5,298 nucleotides of DNA, from positions 1-5,298 of the IMG/VR virus record IMGVR_UViG_2534681626_000009. One strand, given 5' to 3'. The stretch comes from a virus (Duplodnaviria > Heunggongvirae > Uroviricota > Caudoviricetes). The position numbers were made by a program, and so were the translations under genes. Of this stretch, positions 1-5,298 are shown piece after piece. Position 1 is the first letter of the stretch, and every line of letters starts with the position of its first letter. The notes under the pieces were generated by a model. The model made no database searches, was not told the DNA's origin, and saw only the letters and a list, made by a program, of their open reading frames with translations.

Positions 1-717
1 ACTATCACTGAAATTAATACGCCAACCCGTGGCTGGGTTTCGGTAACTAATCCTGCTGCGGCTACTGTTGGCTCTCCGGCAGAAACTGATGCTGAGTTAC
101 GTATCCGCCAGTCGCAAAGTGTTGCGTTGCCATCAATAACCCCATTTGAAGCACTGGATGGTGCTGTTTCTAATGTTACCGGTGTAACCCGCCACAAACT
201 CTATGAAAACGATACTGGTTCGGAGGACGGTAACGGGTTACCGCCACACTCTGTTGCTGTAATTGTGGATGGCGGTGATGTGACGGATATTGCTCAGGCT
301 ATTAGAGGGAATAAAGGCCAGGGGACAGCCACTCACGGTAGAACATCCGTTACGGTTCCGGATAAATACGGCAATCCCCATGTAATCAAATTCTCGCGTT
401 CCAGTGATGTACCTGTTTATGCCCGGATTAAATTAAAAGTTTTTACGGGTTATACCTCACAGATAGGGCAGCAGATCCAGCAGGCTATTTCCGACTATAT
501 CAATAGTCTGATGATTGGTGATTCGGTCCTTTTAAGTCGCATTTACTCACCGGCGAATCTTGGCGTGGTGAGTGGCGGGAATGCACGCTATTACGATATT
601 CAGGAACTGACGATTGGGAAATCCCCGGGGGCTTTGTCGTCATCAAACATTGATATCAGATACAACGAATCTGCGTCCTGTACACCGGAAAATATCGTTA
701 TAACGGTGGAGTCATGA
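1..717 (+). CDS. Baseplate J-like protein (P2 gpJ / Mu gp47 family), C-terminal portion; 5' end lies outside the window
   Basis: The reading frame is open from base 1 with no stop until TGA at 715-717; the ORF track starts at a TTG at 127 only because the window truncates the gene. Family assignment is from gene order (immediately upstream of a tail protein I gene and a tail-fibre gene) and general resemblance, not a search. The stop overlaps the next start as ATGA at 714-717. Confidence 0.7.
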   Translation, partial: TITEINTPTRGWVSVTNPAAATVGSPAETDAELRIRQSQSVALPSITPFEALDGAVSNVTGVTRHKLYENDTGSEDGNGLPPHSVAVIVDGGDVTDIAQAIRGNKGQGTATHGRTSVTVPDKYGNPHVIKFSRSSDVPVYARIKLKVFTGYTSQIGQQIQQAISDYINSLMIGDSVLLSRIYSPANLGVVSGGNARYYDIQELTIGKSPGALSSSNIDIRYNESASCTPENIVITVES

Positions 718-1394
718 GCAAATACACCGAACTGATCACGAACTACCACGCCACCAAACCTAAATTTCTTGCACATGTTGATCTGATGACCCGGCCGCTT
801 ATTGATGTTGCGGCTGCCACCAGAGGGCTGATTACTGCATTTGATATTGACTCTGCGGTTGGTGTGCAACTTGACATTCTTGGATTGTGGATCGGACGTA
901 GCCGTGTTGTCAGCCAGCCTATCTCAGGTGTCTATTTCAGCTGGGATACCGACGGGCTTGGATATGATCATGGTGTATGGCAGGGGCCATACGATCCTGA
1001 TTCCGGATACATGTACCTCAGCGATGAAACTTATCGTGTCATCCTTAAAGCGAAGATTGCGATTAATAACTGGGACGGACGGAATGATTCGCTTCCAGCA
1101 ATTCTTGACGCGGCGACAGCAGGATCCGGACTGCGAATGCAGATAGTCGATAACCAGGACATGACGATATCGGTCTGGCTCTTTCCTGATACTGATATTT
1201 CAGATGTATCGCGTGAGTTAATTGCTGCAATTAAACAGGGATATCTCACAGTAAAAGCCGCCGGGGTTTGGGCGGGTGGCATTGAAACACCTTCGGTGGA
1301 AACTCCATCGGAAGGTTCAAAATTTTTTGGTTTTGATATGGATAACGAATTCATCAGTGGTTTTGATGTAGGGGCATGGGGAGTATTACTCTGA
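714..1394 (+). CDS. Phage tail protein I (P2 gpI / Mu gp48-like baseplate-tail-fibre connector)
   Basis: 226-aa ORF sitting between the J-like gene and the tail-fibre gene, the conserved J-I-H order of P2/Mu-type baseplate modules. Start ATG overlaps the upstream stop (ATGA); stop TGA at 1392-1394 overlaps the next start (TGATG). Confidence 0.75.
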   Translation: MSKYTELITNYHATKPKFLAHVDLMTRPLIDVAAATRGLITAFDIDSAVGVQLDILGLWIGRSRVVSQPISGVYFSWDTDGLGYDHGVWQGPYDPDSGYMYLSDETYRVILKAKIAINNWDGRNDSLPAILDAATAGSGLRMQIVDNQDMTISVWLFPDTDISDVSRELIAAIKQGYLTVKAAGVWAGGIETPSVETPSEGSKFFGFDMDNEFISGFDVGAWGVLL

Positions 1395-2026
1395 TGGCGA
1401 AAAATGACTTTAAAGCGTTTGCAACTGATCGGAATGCCAATGTTATGTCGCAGGAGGAATGGGAAGCGTTGCCTGCGCTTTTATCCGGATTTACAGCAGG
1501 GAAAGCATCCAGTGCGCAAGTCAATAAGGTTATTCGGCAGGCCAGCTTTATTGCTGCAGCTCTGGCCCAGTTTGTAAGTGACAAAACGCAACGGGATGTG
1601 CTTGATAATGGTGATCTGCCCGGTTTTGTTGAATTGCTGGGATCGGGGTTTGCTGTTGAATACCTGAGCCGCAAGAATCCGTTTGGTGATATCAAATCGG
1701 ATGGCGCGGTGAAAACGGCTCTCGAAAACCTTGGTTTGGGAGAAGGTGCTAACTGGGTTATGTTACCTGGAGGAATGATAATTCAGCGTGTTTATCTTGG
1801 ATTTCCTGTCGGCACCAATGTAAGACACATAACTTTCCCCCGGTCGTTTACAACAACGAACTATTCAATCTCAATTAACTGGAATGATATCGGTACTGCA
1901 ACAACTGAAACACAATCTCCAGCAAATGTGGCGGTTGTTCATCAAACAAAATCATTAACAGGGGCCAGCATCTGGCAGGCAGGTCCCGGGGGATTTAATG
2001 TGGACATTATAGCGGTGGGGGATTGA
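1394..2026 (+). CDS. stfP: Tail fibre protein: constant N-terminal region (to about 1747) fused to variable C-terminal receptor-binding module A
   Basis: I placed the start at ATG 1394 rather than the track's 1376 because of the TGATG overlap with the upstream stop and a GGGGAG about 12 nt upstream. The N-terminal portion (118 aa from this start, 124 aa from the track start) is identical to the N-terminus of the reverse-strand ORF 3030..3905, and the two diverge exactly at the crossover site. The symbol is tentative, based on order and size matching e14 stfP as I recall it (about 209 aa). Confidence 0.75.
1719..1744. other. Site-specific recombination crossover site, hix/gix/cix/pix-like (left site)
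   Basis: The sequence CTCTCGAAAACC-TT-GGTTTGGGAGAA has imperfect dyad symmetry (9 of 12 positions per half) around a central TT at 1731-1732. It carries the GAAAACC..GGTTT core that I recall from Hin/Gin/Cin/Pin sites (hixL from memory: TTCTTGAAAACCAAGGTTTTTGATAA). It sits exactly where the two tail-fibre variants diverge. Confidence 0.7.
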
Positions 2027-2027
2027 T

Positions 2028-2456
2028 ATGTACGTATGGAGCGCTAAAGCAAATGGCTTTTTCCCCATAGCGGAGAAAGAAAAATTTGAGGCATCAGGTA
2101 TGTGGCCTGATGATGGTGTAATAGTCAGTGAAGAAGAACATAAAAAGTTATTTATGGATATTCCACCAGGAAAACAGATTGGAACACAGAATGGAAAACC
2201 AGCACTGATAGATATTCCTCAGCCGACCAAAAAGGAATTAATCGCTATTGCTGAAGTTAAAAAATCCCAATTACGGGAAAAAGCTGACAGTGAAATATCC
2301 TGGCGTCAGGATGCTGTTGATGCTGATATCGCAACTGATGAAGAAACTTCAACTCTCACCGAATGGAAGAAATACCGTGTGCTGCTGATGCGTGTTGATA
2401 CTTCAACAGCACCCGATATTGAATGGCCTACGCCTCCGGCAGTTCAGGCCAGATGA
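2028..2456 (+). CDS. tfaP: Tail fibre assembly protein (Tfa / Mu U-like chaperone) for module A
   Basis: 142-aa ORF starting 1 nt after the tail-fibre stop (TGA-T-ATG) with GGGG about 8 nt upstream. The C-terminal motif [11 protein letters not shown] is shared with the convergent partner ORF. Position directly after a tail-fibre variable region is typical of Tfa genes. Symbol tentative. Confidence 0.75.
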
Positions 2457-3033
2457 CATCCGGCGCGGTGCTGGTATCTGTTACCGTCACCGCGTCAATG
2501 TAATCCAGCACGGCGTTAAGTCGGGTTGTTTCTGCCTGCGTCAGCTTCCGCCCGGCCTGTAATTTCAGTTGAATCAGACTGATGGAAGCCATTGCAGTAT
2601 CCATCAGCGACTGGCGCTGTGCTTCTGCTGCATCTACTGCGGCGCTATGCTGTGCCTCGGTATCCGTCACCCATTTCTCACCATTCCATTTATCGTATGG
2701 CGTTAACGGGGCGATAGTGGTTGTATTATCAGGGTAATCCCCCGGAGCTGTGATTTCTTTTGATTCTCCCGTTTCGGTGTTATAGACAACTTCACCGCGA
2801 TGATCTGGCACATATTCCCATGAGTTAAAATCTGCCGAACGGCAGATTGCATAACCAGCCTTATGTGTGCCAGGAGCATCTAAACAGGAATATGCGGGGA
2901 TACCGACACCCACAGCAAGATATTCAATTGATGCAGAAATATACTCCCGTGTCTCACTGTCATAGTTATAAACGGTAATCTCTCCTGCCTTTGTGGCAAT
3001 AAATTTATTATTTAAGATGGCGTTATACATCAT
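2428..3033 (-). CDS. tfaE: Tail fibre assembly protein (Tfa / Mu U'-like chaperone) for module B
   Basis: 201-aa ORF on the minus strand whose start overlaps the stop of the upstream minus-strand tail-fibre ORF (ATGA at 3030-3033). C-terminal motif [11 protein letters not shown]. It is convergent with the plus-strand Tfa gene and overlaps it by 29 bp (2428..2456). Symbol tentative, from the size match to e14 tfaE (about 200 aa). Confidence 0.75.
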
Positions 3034-3905
3034 GCAGCCCTCACAATGTAATTAAATGAAATATTACGTGGGCGTGTCTCTGCTGCACCGACAATACTGG
3101 TACTCAACCCCGTTGCCGTTCGTTTGTTATTTTTATTTCCTTCAATCAAACAGTTGTAATCATCATTACCAATTAACGAATTGGTGGCATCAATACTGTC
3201 CGGGGACAAGGCATTAGTTGTGGAACTTAAAGTCAGCATCTCGTCTGAACTTGGAAGATTTTTTAATGGTGTTTCATTGCGTGAAATACCCGCGTAAAAA
3301 AAGGACTCATGCCTGTGAGCTTCAAAAGAGTCATCCTGAAGACTTAGCAAGGCTCGCCCCGCATCCACTCCACGTCCATCATCCCAGCCACGAATAAATT
3401 CACCGCGTAAATCAGGCAATTTATTGGTCGGGTAAGCCTTTGCCAGTTCCGGGTATTCTTCAGCAGAAAAAGCCGCACCATTGCATTTCAGCCAGCCTGT
3501 TGGCGGAGTGGCTGAAGGCCACGGAACAGGGACACCAACAGGTAATGCAGAGCCTTCTCCCAAACCAAGGTTTTCGAGAGCCGTTTTCACCGCGCCATCC
3601 GATTTGATATCACCAAACGGATTCTTGCGGCTCAGGTATTCAACAGCAAACCCCGATCCCAGCAATTCAACAAAACCGGGCAGATCACCATTATCAAGCA
3701 CATCCCGTTGCGTTTTGTCACTTACAAACTGGGCCAGAGCTGCAGCAATAAAGCTGGCCTGCCGAATAACCTTATTGACTTGCGCACTGGATGCTTTCCC
3801 TGCTGTAAATCCGGATAAAAGCGCAGGCAACGCTTCCCATTCCTCCTGCGACATAACATTGGCATTCCGATCAGTTGCAAACGCTTTAAAGTCATTTTTC
3901 GCCAT
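3030..3905 (-). CDS. stfE: Tail fibre protein: same constant N-terminal region fused to alternative variable C-terminal module B (carries the conserved tail-fibre tip motif)
   Basis: Minus-strand ORF whose N-terminal portion is identical to that of 1394..2026, followed by a different 173-aa C-terminus containing [10 protein letters not shown]...YPELAKAYP...[17 protein letters not shown], which I recognise as the conserved motif of T-even gp37 / lambda Stf / Mu S / P2 H fibre tips. Start chosen at the mirror of 1394. Symbol tentative. Confidence 0.7.
3555..3580. other. Site-specific recombination crossover site, hix/gix/cix/pix-like (right site, inverted orientation)
   Basis: TTCTCCCAAACC-AA-GGTTTTCGAGAG is the exact reverse complement of the left site. 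The inverted orientation is what invertase-mediated inversion, rather than deletion, requires. Confidence 0.7.
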
Positions 3906-4585
3906 CAGAGTAATACTCCCCATGCCCCTACATCAAAACCACTGATGAATTCGTTATCCATATCAAAACCAAAAAATTTTGAACCTTCCGATGGAGTTTC
4001 CACCGAAGGTGTTTCAATGCCACCCGCCCAAACCCCGGCGGCTTTTACTGTGAGATATCCCTGTTTAATTGCAGCAATTAACTCACGCGATACATCTGAA
4101 ATATCAGTATCAGGAAAGAGCCAGACCGATATCGTCATGTCCTGGTTATCGACTATCTGCATTCGCAGTCCGGATCCTGCTGTCGCCGCGTCAAGAATTG
4201 CTGGAAGCGAATCATTCCGTCCGTCCCAGTTATTAATCGCAATCTTCGCTTTAAGGATGACACGATAAGTTTCATCGCTGAGGTACATGTATCCGGAATC
4301 AGGATCGTATGGCCCCTGCCATACACCATGATCATATCCAAGCCCGTCGGTATCCCAGCTGAAATAGACACCTGAGATAGGCTGGCTGACAACACGGCTA
4401 CGTCCGATCCACAATCCAAGAATGTCAAGTTGCACACCAACCGCAGAGTCAATATCAAATGCAGTAATCAGCCCTCTGGTGGCAGCCGCAACATCAATAA
4501 GCGGCCGGGTCATCAGATCAACATGTGCAAGAAATTTAGGTTTGGTGGCGTGGTAGTTCGTGATCAGTTCGGTGTATTTGCTCAT
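3905..4585 (-). CDS. Phage tail protein I, mirrored second copy (identical to 714..1394)
   Basis: Translation is identical to the plus-strand copy and it lies in the right inverted-repeat arm. Whether this is a real second copy or an assembly fold-back is uncertain. Confidence 0.55.
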
Positions 4586-5298
4586 GACTCCACCGTTATA
4601 ACGATATTTTCCGGTGTACAGGACGCAGATTCGTTGTATCTGATATCAATGTTTGATGACGACAAAGCCCCCGGGGATTTCCCAATCGTCAGTTCCTGAA
4701 TATCGTAATAGCGTGCATTCCCGCCACTCACCACGCCAAGATTCGCCGGTGAGTAAATGCGACTTAAAAGGACCGAATCACCAATCATCAGACTATTGAT
4801 ATAGTCGGAAATAGCCTGCTGGATCTGCTGCCCTATCTGTGAGGTATAACCCGTAAAAACTTTTAATTTAATCCGGGCATAAACAGGTACATCACTGGAA
4901 CGCGAGAATTTGATTACATGGGGATTGCCGTATTTATCCGGAACCGTAACGGATGTTCTACCGTGAGTGGCTGTCCCCTGGCCTTTATTCCCTCTAATAG
5001 CCTGAGCAATATCCGTCACATCACCGCCATCCACAATTACAGCAACAGAGTGTGGCGGTAACCCGTTACCGTCCTCCGAACCAGTATCGTTTTCATAGAG
5101 TTTGTGGCGGGTTACACCGGTAACATTAGAAACAGCACCATCCAGTGCTTCAAATGGGGTTATTGATGGCAACGCAACACTTTGCGACTGGCGGATACGT
5201 AACTCAGCATCAGTTTCTGCCGGAGAGCCAACAGTAGCCGCAGCAGGATTAGTTACCGAAACCCAGCCACGGGTTGGCGTATTAATTTCAGTGATAGT
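4582..5298 (-). CDS. Baseplate J-like protein, mirrored second copy (identical to 1..717); 5' end outside the window
   Basis: Reverse complement of 1..717, with the frame open to the window edge. Same uncertainty as the other mirrored copy. Confidence 0.55.
   Translation of the reverse strand, partial: TITEINTPTRGWVSVTNPAAATVGSPAETDAELRIRQSQSVALPSITPFEALDGAVSNVTGVTRHKLYENDTGSEDGNGLPPHSVAVIVDGGDVTDIAQAIRGNKGQGTATHGRTSVTVPDKYGNPHVIKFSRSSDVPVYARIKLKVFTGYTSQIGQQIQQAISDYINSLMIGDSVLLSRIYSPANLGVVSGGNARYYDIQELTIGKSPGALSSSNIDIRYNESASCTPENIVITVES

Follow-up and report, generated by a model that had tools for sequence, protein, structure and literature searches.

A palindromic tail-fibre contig from an ETEC isolate of Escherichia coli is almost certainly a short-read assembly artefact around an ordinary prophage switch

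Results and Discussion

The palindrome formed by the window, i.e. the whole 5298-bp stretch of DNA analysed here, is almost certainly a short-read assembly artefact around an ordinary, well-known fibre switch of an E. coli prophage, and not a new mirrored-operon architecture. Very probably it is a fold-back contig derived from one standard Gin/Pin-type switch that was present in both orientations in the culture, with the single-copy flank used twice by the assembler.

Geometry of the palindrome

A search of the whole window for inverted repeats revealed one long pair, in which positions 1-1746 and 3553-5298 are 100% complementary over 1746 nt. This confirms the preliminary description, which had reported the first of these stretches as the reverse complement of the second. 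The arms are separated by a non-palindromic spacer of 1806 nt. The axis of symmetry, at 2649.5, is the exact midpoint of the window, so that both arms reach the window ends together. The next-longest inverted repeats measure only 14-15 nt and include mismatches, which is the chance level for 5.3 kb; a chance origin of the arms could therefore be ruled out. It was also confirmed that the identity ends 2 bp inside the inner edge of the crossover site, as first described: the letters GG beyond position 1744 are still shared, up to 1746.

Table 1. Features of the 5298-bp window with their positions and supporting evidence
Feature	Position	Strand	Remarks and evidence
Left arm	1..1746	+	"Constant" flank: 3' part of baseplate J gene, DUF2612/Wedge1 gene, fibre constant region to 2 bp beyond the crossover site; judged genuine single-copy DNA; inverted-repeat search, 100% identity to L004 8608-10353 and to L008 (once in each)
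Baseplate J gene, 3' part	1..717	+	Truncated by contig end; PF04865, E=1e-4 (fragment); the full 399-aa gene in L004 also matches PF04865
DUF2612/Phage_Wedge1 baseplate protein, 226 aa	714..1394	+	PF11041, E=2.8e-46; phrog_587
Fibre variant A, 210 aa	1394..2026	+	Constant part Sc (1394-1744, 117 aa) joined to variable part SvA (Gp53-like_C)
Left crossover site, 26 bp	1719..1744	+	CTCTCGAAAACC TT GGTTTGGGAGAA; core dinucleotide 1731-1732; within fibre coding sequence
Body of invertible cassette	1747..3552		Non-palindromic; exchangeable segment between cores 1733-3566
tfaA, tail-fibre assembly chaperone of variant A, 142 aa	2028..2456	+	PF02413, E=3.4e-34
tfaB, tail-fibre assembly chaperone of variant B, 200 aa	2428..3030	-	PF02413, E=4.9e-32
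Fibre variant B, 291 aa	3030..3905	-	Same Sc joined to SvB (Collar domain); PF07484, E=2.9e-15
Right crossover site	3555..3580	-	Core 3567-3568; outer half-site of constant-region type
Right arm	3553..5298	-	Mirror of left arm; judged to occupy the position of the invertase gene in the real genome; inverted-repeat search, sister assemblies, library type

Genes and crossover sites

The central part of the window is an invertible cassette of the Gin/Pin type, with two alternative fibre C-termini, each accompanied by its own chaperone, and with 26-bp crossover sites at its edges (Table 1). As in Gin/Pin/Cin/Hin-type systems, two inverted sites of about 26 bp were found, composed of imperfect 12-bp half-sites around a 2-bp core; we take them to fit the family consensus as given by the hix and gix sites. 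The position of the TT core was confirmed independently by the breakpoints of a quasi-site inversion in contig L015 and by the end of another contig, L013, at window position 1731. Only 16 bp at the crossover sites form a natural perfect inverted repeat. The gene arrangement is likewise that of the family, with one constant N-terminus outside the segment, and with SvA and tfaA on the plus strand and SvB and tfaB on the minus strand inside it. The two chaperone genes are convergent and overlap by 29 nt.

The arms were originally described as duplicating the genes for baseplate J, tail protein I and the fibre constant region. This gene content could be recognised, but the label "tail protein I" is positional only: the DUF2612/Phage_Wedge1 gene holds the same place as gpI in P2, and its product belongs to a different family.

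No serine (resolvase-family) invertase gene is present among the open reading frames of the window, and its absence is read here as a consequence of fold-back assembly. In known members of the family, the Fis-bound recombinational enhancer lies in cis in the 5' part of the invertase gene, and it would thus fall outside the window. Both sites of the window carry an outer half of the constant-region type. The second site of all long contigs examined carries an invertase-side outer half instead, which reads TTTTCATAAACG in the sister assemblies.

Source of the contig and sequencing data

The window corresponds to the full length of contig APYR01000052.1 (5298 bp) in GCA_000358795.2, a draft assembly of the ETEC isolate E. 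coli P0299917.8. Each arm continues as far as the end of the contig. The unique sequence that a genuine long inverted duplication should have beyond its outer ends is absent on both sides. The P0299917 isolates were grown as overnight LB cultures and sequenced at more than 200x as Illumina HiSeq2000 paired ends with 300-bp inserts, followed by assembly with Celera Assembler; nine of the ten isolates from the source patient are closely linked (PMC4462620). With inserts of 300 bp against a centre of 1806 bp, no read or read pair can link the two arms.

Two general origins of such a join were considered and rejected. Fold-backs of a generic kind, such as amplification chimeras or hairpin reads, would not make the symmetry end precisely at a pair of recombination sites that enclose a 1.8-kb cassette. 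The minimum overlap of Celera is about 40 bp, and a spurious join via a short repeat would have only the 16 perfect bases of the natural repeat at its disposal. The fold-back join would therefore need real junction reads.

Sister assemblies

The same locus was found at 99.9-100% identity in sister assemblies under the neighbouring accessions APYK-APYS of the same deposition series. Strain names were tied to contigs, by way of protein names, for P0299917.8 and P0299917.6 only; the other sister contigs were placed in the patient series by their neighbouring accessions, their near-identity and the names P0299917.5 and P0299917.10 on a shared protein. In the 76-kb contig L004 (APYS) and the 23-kb contig L008 (APYM), the constant region occurs once and is 100% identical to the arm of the window. 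It is followed by SvB-tfaB-tfaA'-SvA', the second site, a 184-aa Resolvase/HTH_7 gene (12242-12796 in L004) and a SIR2 gene. The product of the former matches the structure of Mu Gin (3UJ3) with E=6.7e-94 and is thus a close homologue. A homology search with the adjoining 936-aa SIR2 protein yielded a partial cluster representative only. The suggestion that in the window the invertase flank is replaced by a mirrored copy of the constant flank agrees with these two loci, since they have the invertase gene at that place. We judge the right arm to be the genomic DNA of the left arm, walked a second time by the assembler.

Two further sister contigs are also fold-backs, namely L011 (P0299917.6), with arms of 1721 and 1721 nt, and L012 (APYQ), with arms of 1336 and 1282 nt. 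Both lack flanks like the window and end at other positions: in window coordinates, the outer arm ends of the three fold-back contigs lie at 1, 26 and 411/465. These differing arm lengths indicate that the ends are not one fixed duplication boundary. Contig L013 (APYK) stops at the crossover core, as expected of a read-supported fork. In sequence, the sister assemblies differ only at three clustered synonymous positions just inside the SvB end (3531, 3534 and 3540, within 10 bp), which read TTC, GGC or GGG, and the fold-back state does not track the local TTC/GGG haplotype.

Survey of other genomes

A search of 5426 complete E. coli genomes, 50,697 phage records and 72,556 plasmids found no instance of the mirrored layout, defined as at least 80% of the window in colinear order; the canonical locus covers at most 67% of the window. 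Seventeen distinct long contigs were examined, and in all of them the fibre-type outer half-site is located on one side of the cassette and a different outer half-site on the other, followed in each by a resolvase-family gene of 182-188 aa (Resolvase and HTH_7). A fibre-type outer half at both cassette ends was seen only in the three fold-back contigs. Both orientations of the cassette occur beside the invertase, as in Gin/Pin/Cin/Hin-type segments: the constant region is joined to variant A in L001 and L019 and to variant B in L004-L008 and L014.

A real palindrome in P0299917.8 and some of its sister isolates, with at least 1.7 kb of the baseplate/fibre operon duplicated in inverted orientation in place of the invertase flank, is very improbable in the light of these results. 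The two fibre variants would in that case be produced simultaneously, and an invertase acting in trans would merely swap them. In favour of this reading, each local junction of the contig is necessarily backed by reads, a true inverted duplication would, if collapsed, likewise assemble as arm, centre and arm, and contigs of the same kind came from three sister assemblies. Long inverted repeats with kilobase spacers are, moreover, tolerated in E. coli. Against this stand the absence of unique flank on both sides, the variable arm ends among the three fold-back contigs, and the single constant region followed by the invertase gene in sister assemblies whose arm is 100% identical. The independence of the fold-back state from the haplotype and the absence of the layout from the surveyed E. 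coli genomes and the phage and plasmid collections argue in the same direction, and the type of data could not support a linkage over 1.8 kb.

Proposed origin of the fold-back contig

At the end of a myovirus prophage, the real genome would carry a host-range switch of the standard Gin/Pin type, in the order baseplate J, DUF2612, fibre constant region, site, SvA-tfaA/tfaB-SvB cassette, site and Gin-like serine invertase gene. When the segment between the two 26-bp sites inverts, with exchange at the TT core, the variable part joined to the constant region would change between SvA and SvB. We infer that the overnight culture held cells of both orientations, which would result in reads with both the constant-SvA and the constant-SvB junction. 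To give junction reads at 200x, the minority orientation would need to make up about 1% or more of the cells. An overlap assembler could then have passed from the constant region into SvA and on to SvB, and then, over the other junction, back along the same constant region in reverse-complement orientation. The single-copy flank would thus be used twice, with the invertase flank left to another contig. An assembler path through both orientations had already been put forward as the simplest explanation in the preliminary description. It is supported by the finding that the window is a whole short-read contig without flank, by a library too short to span the centre, by the layouts in the sister assemblies and by the lack of the mirrored layout in finished genomes, phages and plasmids.

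The same junctions could also arise without inversion, from a second, near-identical cassette in another prophage and in the opposite state. In that case the assembler would have crossed over via the shared cassette and the last approximately 80 nt of the fibre constant region, which match between the two prophages, and then returned along the same constant region. We consider this explanation unlikely, even though several observations are in line with it. P2-like, Mu-like and two E217/Pam3-like prophage backbones share the cassette at 99.5% identity or more, and the approximately 80 nt of constant region that adjoin the site on its outer side recur in the Mu-like copy L021 and in two records of the plasmid collection (H51 and H52). 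Among complete E. coli genomes with a match to the window, the number of matching places has a median of two and reaches up to ten. The TTC/GGC/GGG mosaic, in addition, is what would be expected of a consensus over two paralogous copies, so a second cassette copy could have supplied the second junction. The contigs L004 and L008, however, pass straight through the cassette, which would be unexpected in the presence of a second copy because a 1.8-kb repeat of more than 99.5% identity would exceed the 300-bp inserts. Nor was a second cassette contig from the sister assemblies present among the matches listed.

It is extremely improbable that the contig reflects a rare real molecule, present in a small fraction of cells, in which the invertase had joined two sister chromosome copies, at the constant-side site of one and the invertase-side site of the other, into a head-to-head arrangement of constant region, cassette and inverted constant region. 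On paper, a core exchange that links the left site of one copy with the right site of the other does yield this order, with a constant-type outer half at both ends as observed. Invertases of the Gin/Hin family, however, act through a Fis- and enhancer-dependent synaptic complex and are strongly restricted to inverted sites on one supercoiled molecule. The product would also be an inverted chromosome dimer unable to segregate normally. Short reads cannot tell such a molecule apart from ordinary inversion, which gives identical junctions far more often.

Comparison with known inversion systems

Like the G segment of phage Mu with its invertase Gin, the locus has the constant fibre part outside the segment and the variable parts with their own chaperones inside it, in convergent gene sets. 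The inverted crossover sites lie in coding sequence and, in the sister assemblies, the invertase gene follows directly beyond one of them. The backbone, in contrast, is not that of Mu, as the tail module matches E217_gp31_N, Phage_Tube_PhiTE, Pam3_gp18 and DUF2612. The segment in the window measures 1.8 kb against about 3 kb for the G segment, and the mirrored arm takes the place of the invertase flank, which we attribute to assembly. A relation to the P region of e14 and its invertase Pin is suggested by the name pinE, given by RefSeq to the neighbouring recombinase. P2-like (L017, L022) and Mu-like (L021) prophages contain an identical tfaA/tfaB cassette adjoining a resolvase-family gene, but the constant regions and outer half-sites differ from one backbone to another.

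The C segment of phage P1, inverted by Cin, also combines an invertible fibre segment with long inverted repeats. Its repeats, about 0.6 kb long, are situated between the crossover sites and are inverted together with the segment, whereas the 1746-bp repeats of the window are located outside the sites and include baseplate genes. The original statement that only the short sites are repeated in known inversion systems is therefore too strong, although repeats outside the segment, as in the window, are not matched by those of P1. A further likeness is to the fold-back contigs that short-read assemblers produce at invertible segments present in both orientations, which have the form arm, segment and reverse complement of the arm, with the symmetry broken at the recombination sites and no unique flank. 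The recurrence of the pattern with other arm lengths in sister assemblies made by the same method also resembles fold-back artefacts. A search of the literature on palindromic contigs at invertible segments brought up no paper on this case.

Significance

If the palindrome were real, it would represent a new organisation of a phage host-range switch, in which two fibres are expressed simultaneously rather than alternately. As an artefact, it illustrates how a short-read assembler can be led by an active invertible segment to produce a fold-back contig. Genes mirrored in this way have been annotated and deposited as though they were distinct, for instance ENC63926.1 and ENC63933.1 on one contig and the singleton fibre protein ENC82068.1/WP_001482422.1. 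In scans of draft assemblies for long palindromes, an arm, an invertible segment and a second arm without flanks can be taken as a signature of orientation heterogeneity. For the bacteria themselves, the fold-back contigs hint that the fibre switch was active, or duplicated, in the ETEC isolates cultured here.

Structure of the palindrome

A repeat search of the window revealed a single long inverted repeat, whose arms (1-1746 and 3553-5298) are each of 1746 nt, 100% complementary and separated by a spacer of 1806 nt, as claimed in the preliminary description. The symmetry axis (2649.5) is the exact window centre, and the arms reach both window ends together. Otherwise the window has only mismatched inverted repeats of 14-15 nt, as expected by chance in 5.3 kb. 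By exact-protein match, the window is the entire contig APYR01000052.1 (5298 bp) of assembly GCA_000358795.2, and its fibre protein was deposited as ECP02999178_5312 of Escherichia coli P0299917.8. The ETEC isolates were grown overnight in LB from single colonies, sequenced on HiSeq2000 (paired-end, 300-bp inserts, >200x) and assembled with Celera Assembler; of the ten isolates from patient P0299917, nine were closely linked (PMC4462620). The arms, 1806 bp apart, are beyond the reach of any read or pair from 300-bp inserts, and the contig is therefore a mere chain of local overlaps.

The gene labels baseplate J and fibre constant region given earlier could be retained, while "tail protein I" holds for the gpI position only and not for the family. 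The 210-aa and 291-aa fibre proteins have their first 117 residues in common and then diverge. The 26-bp sequence at the divergence point is built like a Hin/Gin/Cin/Pin crossover site, with a 2-bp core between two 12-bp half-sites. The arms match through a GG beyond the inner half-site, in line with the 2 bp of identity past the inner site edge noted previously.

Features of the window and of sister contigs (window positions unless a contig is named)
Feature	Position	Strand	Remark
Baseplate_J gene, 3' part	1-717	+	
DUF2612/Phage_Wedge1 gene	714-1394	+	P2 gpI position, other family
Fibre gene	1394-2026	+	210 aa
tfaA, Caudo_TAP chaperone	2028-2456	+	
tfaB, second Caudo_TAP chaperone	2428-3030	-	
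Fibre gene	3030-3905	-	291 aa, Collar domain
DUF2612 and Baseplate_J mirror copies	right arm	-	
26-bp crossover site	1719-1744, mirrored at 3555-3580		CTCTCGAAAACC-TT-GGTTTGGGAGAA; fibre divergence point inside
tfaB quasi-site	2672-2697		CATTTCTCACCA-TT-CCATTTATCGTA; core 2684-2685
Split lytic transglycosylase ORFs	L004, L007, L008 2380-4369		191+480 or 201+461 aa

The locus in sister assemblies

Fourteen contigs encode the 291-aa fibre, several of them from neighbouring-accession assemblies; L011 is named P0299917.6, and a protein common to others of these contigs bears the names P0299917.5 and P0299917.10. Pairwise comparison showed the arm sequence to be present once, 100% identical to the window, in L004 (APYS, a 76-kb contig) and L008 (APYM). 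Beyond it follow SvB-tfaB-tfaA'-SvA' (SvA and SvB being the alternative fibre C-termini), the second site, a 184-aa Resolvase and HTH_7 gene and a SIR2-family gene. L013 (APYK) passes the constant region and the cassette and ends at window 1731, the first core base, which is where an assembler halts when reads give two continuations. L011 (P0299917.6) and L012 (APYQ) are folded back like the window, their arms measuring 1721/1721 and 1336/1282 nt, so that one locus and one method gave a resolved, a site-broken or a folded-back outcome. The fold-back contigs have no constant outer boundary.

Read inwards, the invertase-side site of L004 is TTTTCATAAACG-TT-GGTTTGGGAGAA-GG; core, inner half-site and GG are shared with the fibre-side site, which leaves a natural perfect inverted repeat of just 16 bp. 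The 17 distinct long contigs that were examined all have a fibre-type outer half at one site and a different outer half, followed by a resolvase-family gene, at the other, while fibre-type outer halves at both ends occur only in the three fold-back contigs. Such double halves are the expected product when the constant-SvA junction of one orientation is concatenated with the constant-SvB junction of the other. In the window, a mirrored constant flank stands in place of the invertase flank, as remarked earlier. The sister-locus invertase gives matches to the solved structure of Mu Gin, 3UJ3 (E=6.7e-94), and to phrog_125 'DNA invertase'. With the cassette beside the invertase, variant A is fused to the constant region in L001 and L019 and variant B in L004-L008 and L014.

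Three synonymous differences within 10 bp were found among sister assemblies just inside the SvB end (3531/3534/3540, fibre B coding strand): the window and L011 read TTC, L008 GGC, and L004, L012 and L013 GGG. This mosaic suggests that two paralogous copies were merged into one consensus, or that a paralogue was the donor in a gene conversion. A 662-aa gene in the tape-measure position, named lytic transglycosylase by the sources, is split in the P0299917 sister assemblies and intact in L006 and L009, indicating either a defective prophage or a recurrent assembly error. Directly past the invertase, at the prophage edge beside torT/torR-like genes, L004 encodes a 936-aa SIR2_2-family protein (13017-15827, - strand). 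The N-terminal part is similar to the SIR2 domain of Thoeris ThsA (E=4.4e-29), the remainder being without a strong match; the gene may be prophage-end cargo with a role in defence. In L001 and L002 this position is taken by other genes.

Origin of the palindrome

Beneath the palindrome lies an invertible tail-fibre cassette of a known kind, a classical host-range switch; site, gene layout and invertase homology come from this analysis, the chemistry from knowledge of the family. As in the Hin/Gin family, where sites are paired on one supercoiled molecule and strands exchanged at the core, the serine invertase would pair both sites and swap strands at the TT core. The ~1.8-kb cassette would thereby be inverted and the constant fibre N-terminus joined to SvA and tfaA or to SvB and tfaB. 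The assembler would then have used the single constant flank twice, entering the cassette via the junction of one orientation and leaving it via that of the other. Celera requires an overlap longer than 16 bp; the join would therefore imply real reads for both junctions, and hence a culture mixed in orientation. We consider it very likely that the palindrome is the single constant flank traversed twice in such a culture.

An artefact without inversion, in which another prophage with a nearly identical second cassette supplied the second junction, is rather unlikely. In its favour, P2-like, Mu-like and E217/Pam3-like backbones carry the cassette with at least 99.5% identity, some of them also having the final 80 nt of the constant region in common, and the mosaic near the SvB end resembles a two-copy consensus. 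Against it, the long contigs of sister assemblies pass through the cassette without a break.

A real palindromic locus should give a colinear match over 100% of the window, against at most 67% (1-3573) for the canonical locus. One place covering at least 80% of the window was found in 0 of 5426 complete E. coli genomes, 0 of 50,697 phage records and 0 of 72,556 plasmids. Together with the missing outer flanks, the arm ends varying between fold-back contigs and the canonical layout in sister assemblies, this supports the assembler path favoured from the outset and makes a real inverted duplication in the genome highly improbable. Recombination between sister chromosomes would give a rare head-to-head product with the palindrome's structure, but it would be undetectable by short reads and, as the family is restricted to sites on one molecule, its probability is negligible. 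The mirrored operon layout is almost certainly no genuine feature of the genome.

Rearrangement and apparent spread of the cassette

An aberrant inversion was observed in L015 (6623-7580; GCA_047977725.1, a 715-kb contig) and four similar places, with breakpoints at the constant-side crossover core and in weakly site-like sequence within tfaB; tfaB is split and SvB detached from the constant region. This looks like a fixed invertase event at the quasi-site, and the breakpoints pin the exchange point to the TT core.

P2-like, Mu-like and two E217/Pam3-like backbones carry the cassette (window 1731-3568; L017, L020-L023 5699-7546) at 99.5-99.7% identity, the constant region of one backbone being only 74.6% identical to the window. 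Each backbone has its own outer half-sites and invertase, and the cassette therefore appears mobile between phage types as a module. L014 (7003-12429) and L019 (1-5999), from two other E. coli assemblies, retain cassette and invertase at the torT/SIR2 locus, with the fibre constant region cut ~266 bp outside the site and joined to the lambda-like early genes ral, cIII, kil, gam and recT. They carry opposite cassette orientations, one per assembly, so the prophage remnant is rearranged and the switch apparently still flipping.

Consequences for protein databases

The window alone has GGGGG in place of GGGGT at 2021, a base change following a G run by which the final residue of fibre A becomes D instead of Y. 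The base is T in 18/18 other distinct contigs examined, and the change, probably a consensus error, created the singleton record ENC82068.1/WP_001482422.1. In L011 (P0299917.6), the mirrored truncated baseplate J copies (1-692 and 4557-5248) were deposited separately as ENC63926.1 and ENC63933.1; the fold-back artefact has therefore spread into protein databases. Because duplicated arm genes and the probable error at 2021 were deposited as proteins, this case serves mainly as a warning to palindrome scans and databases.
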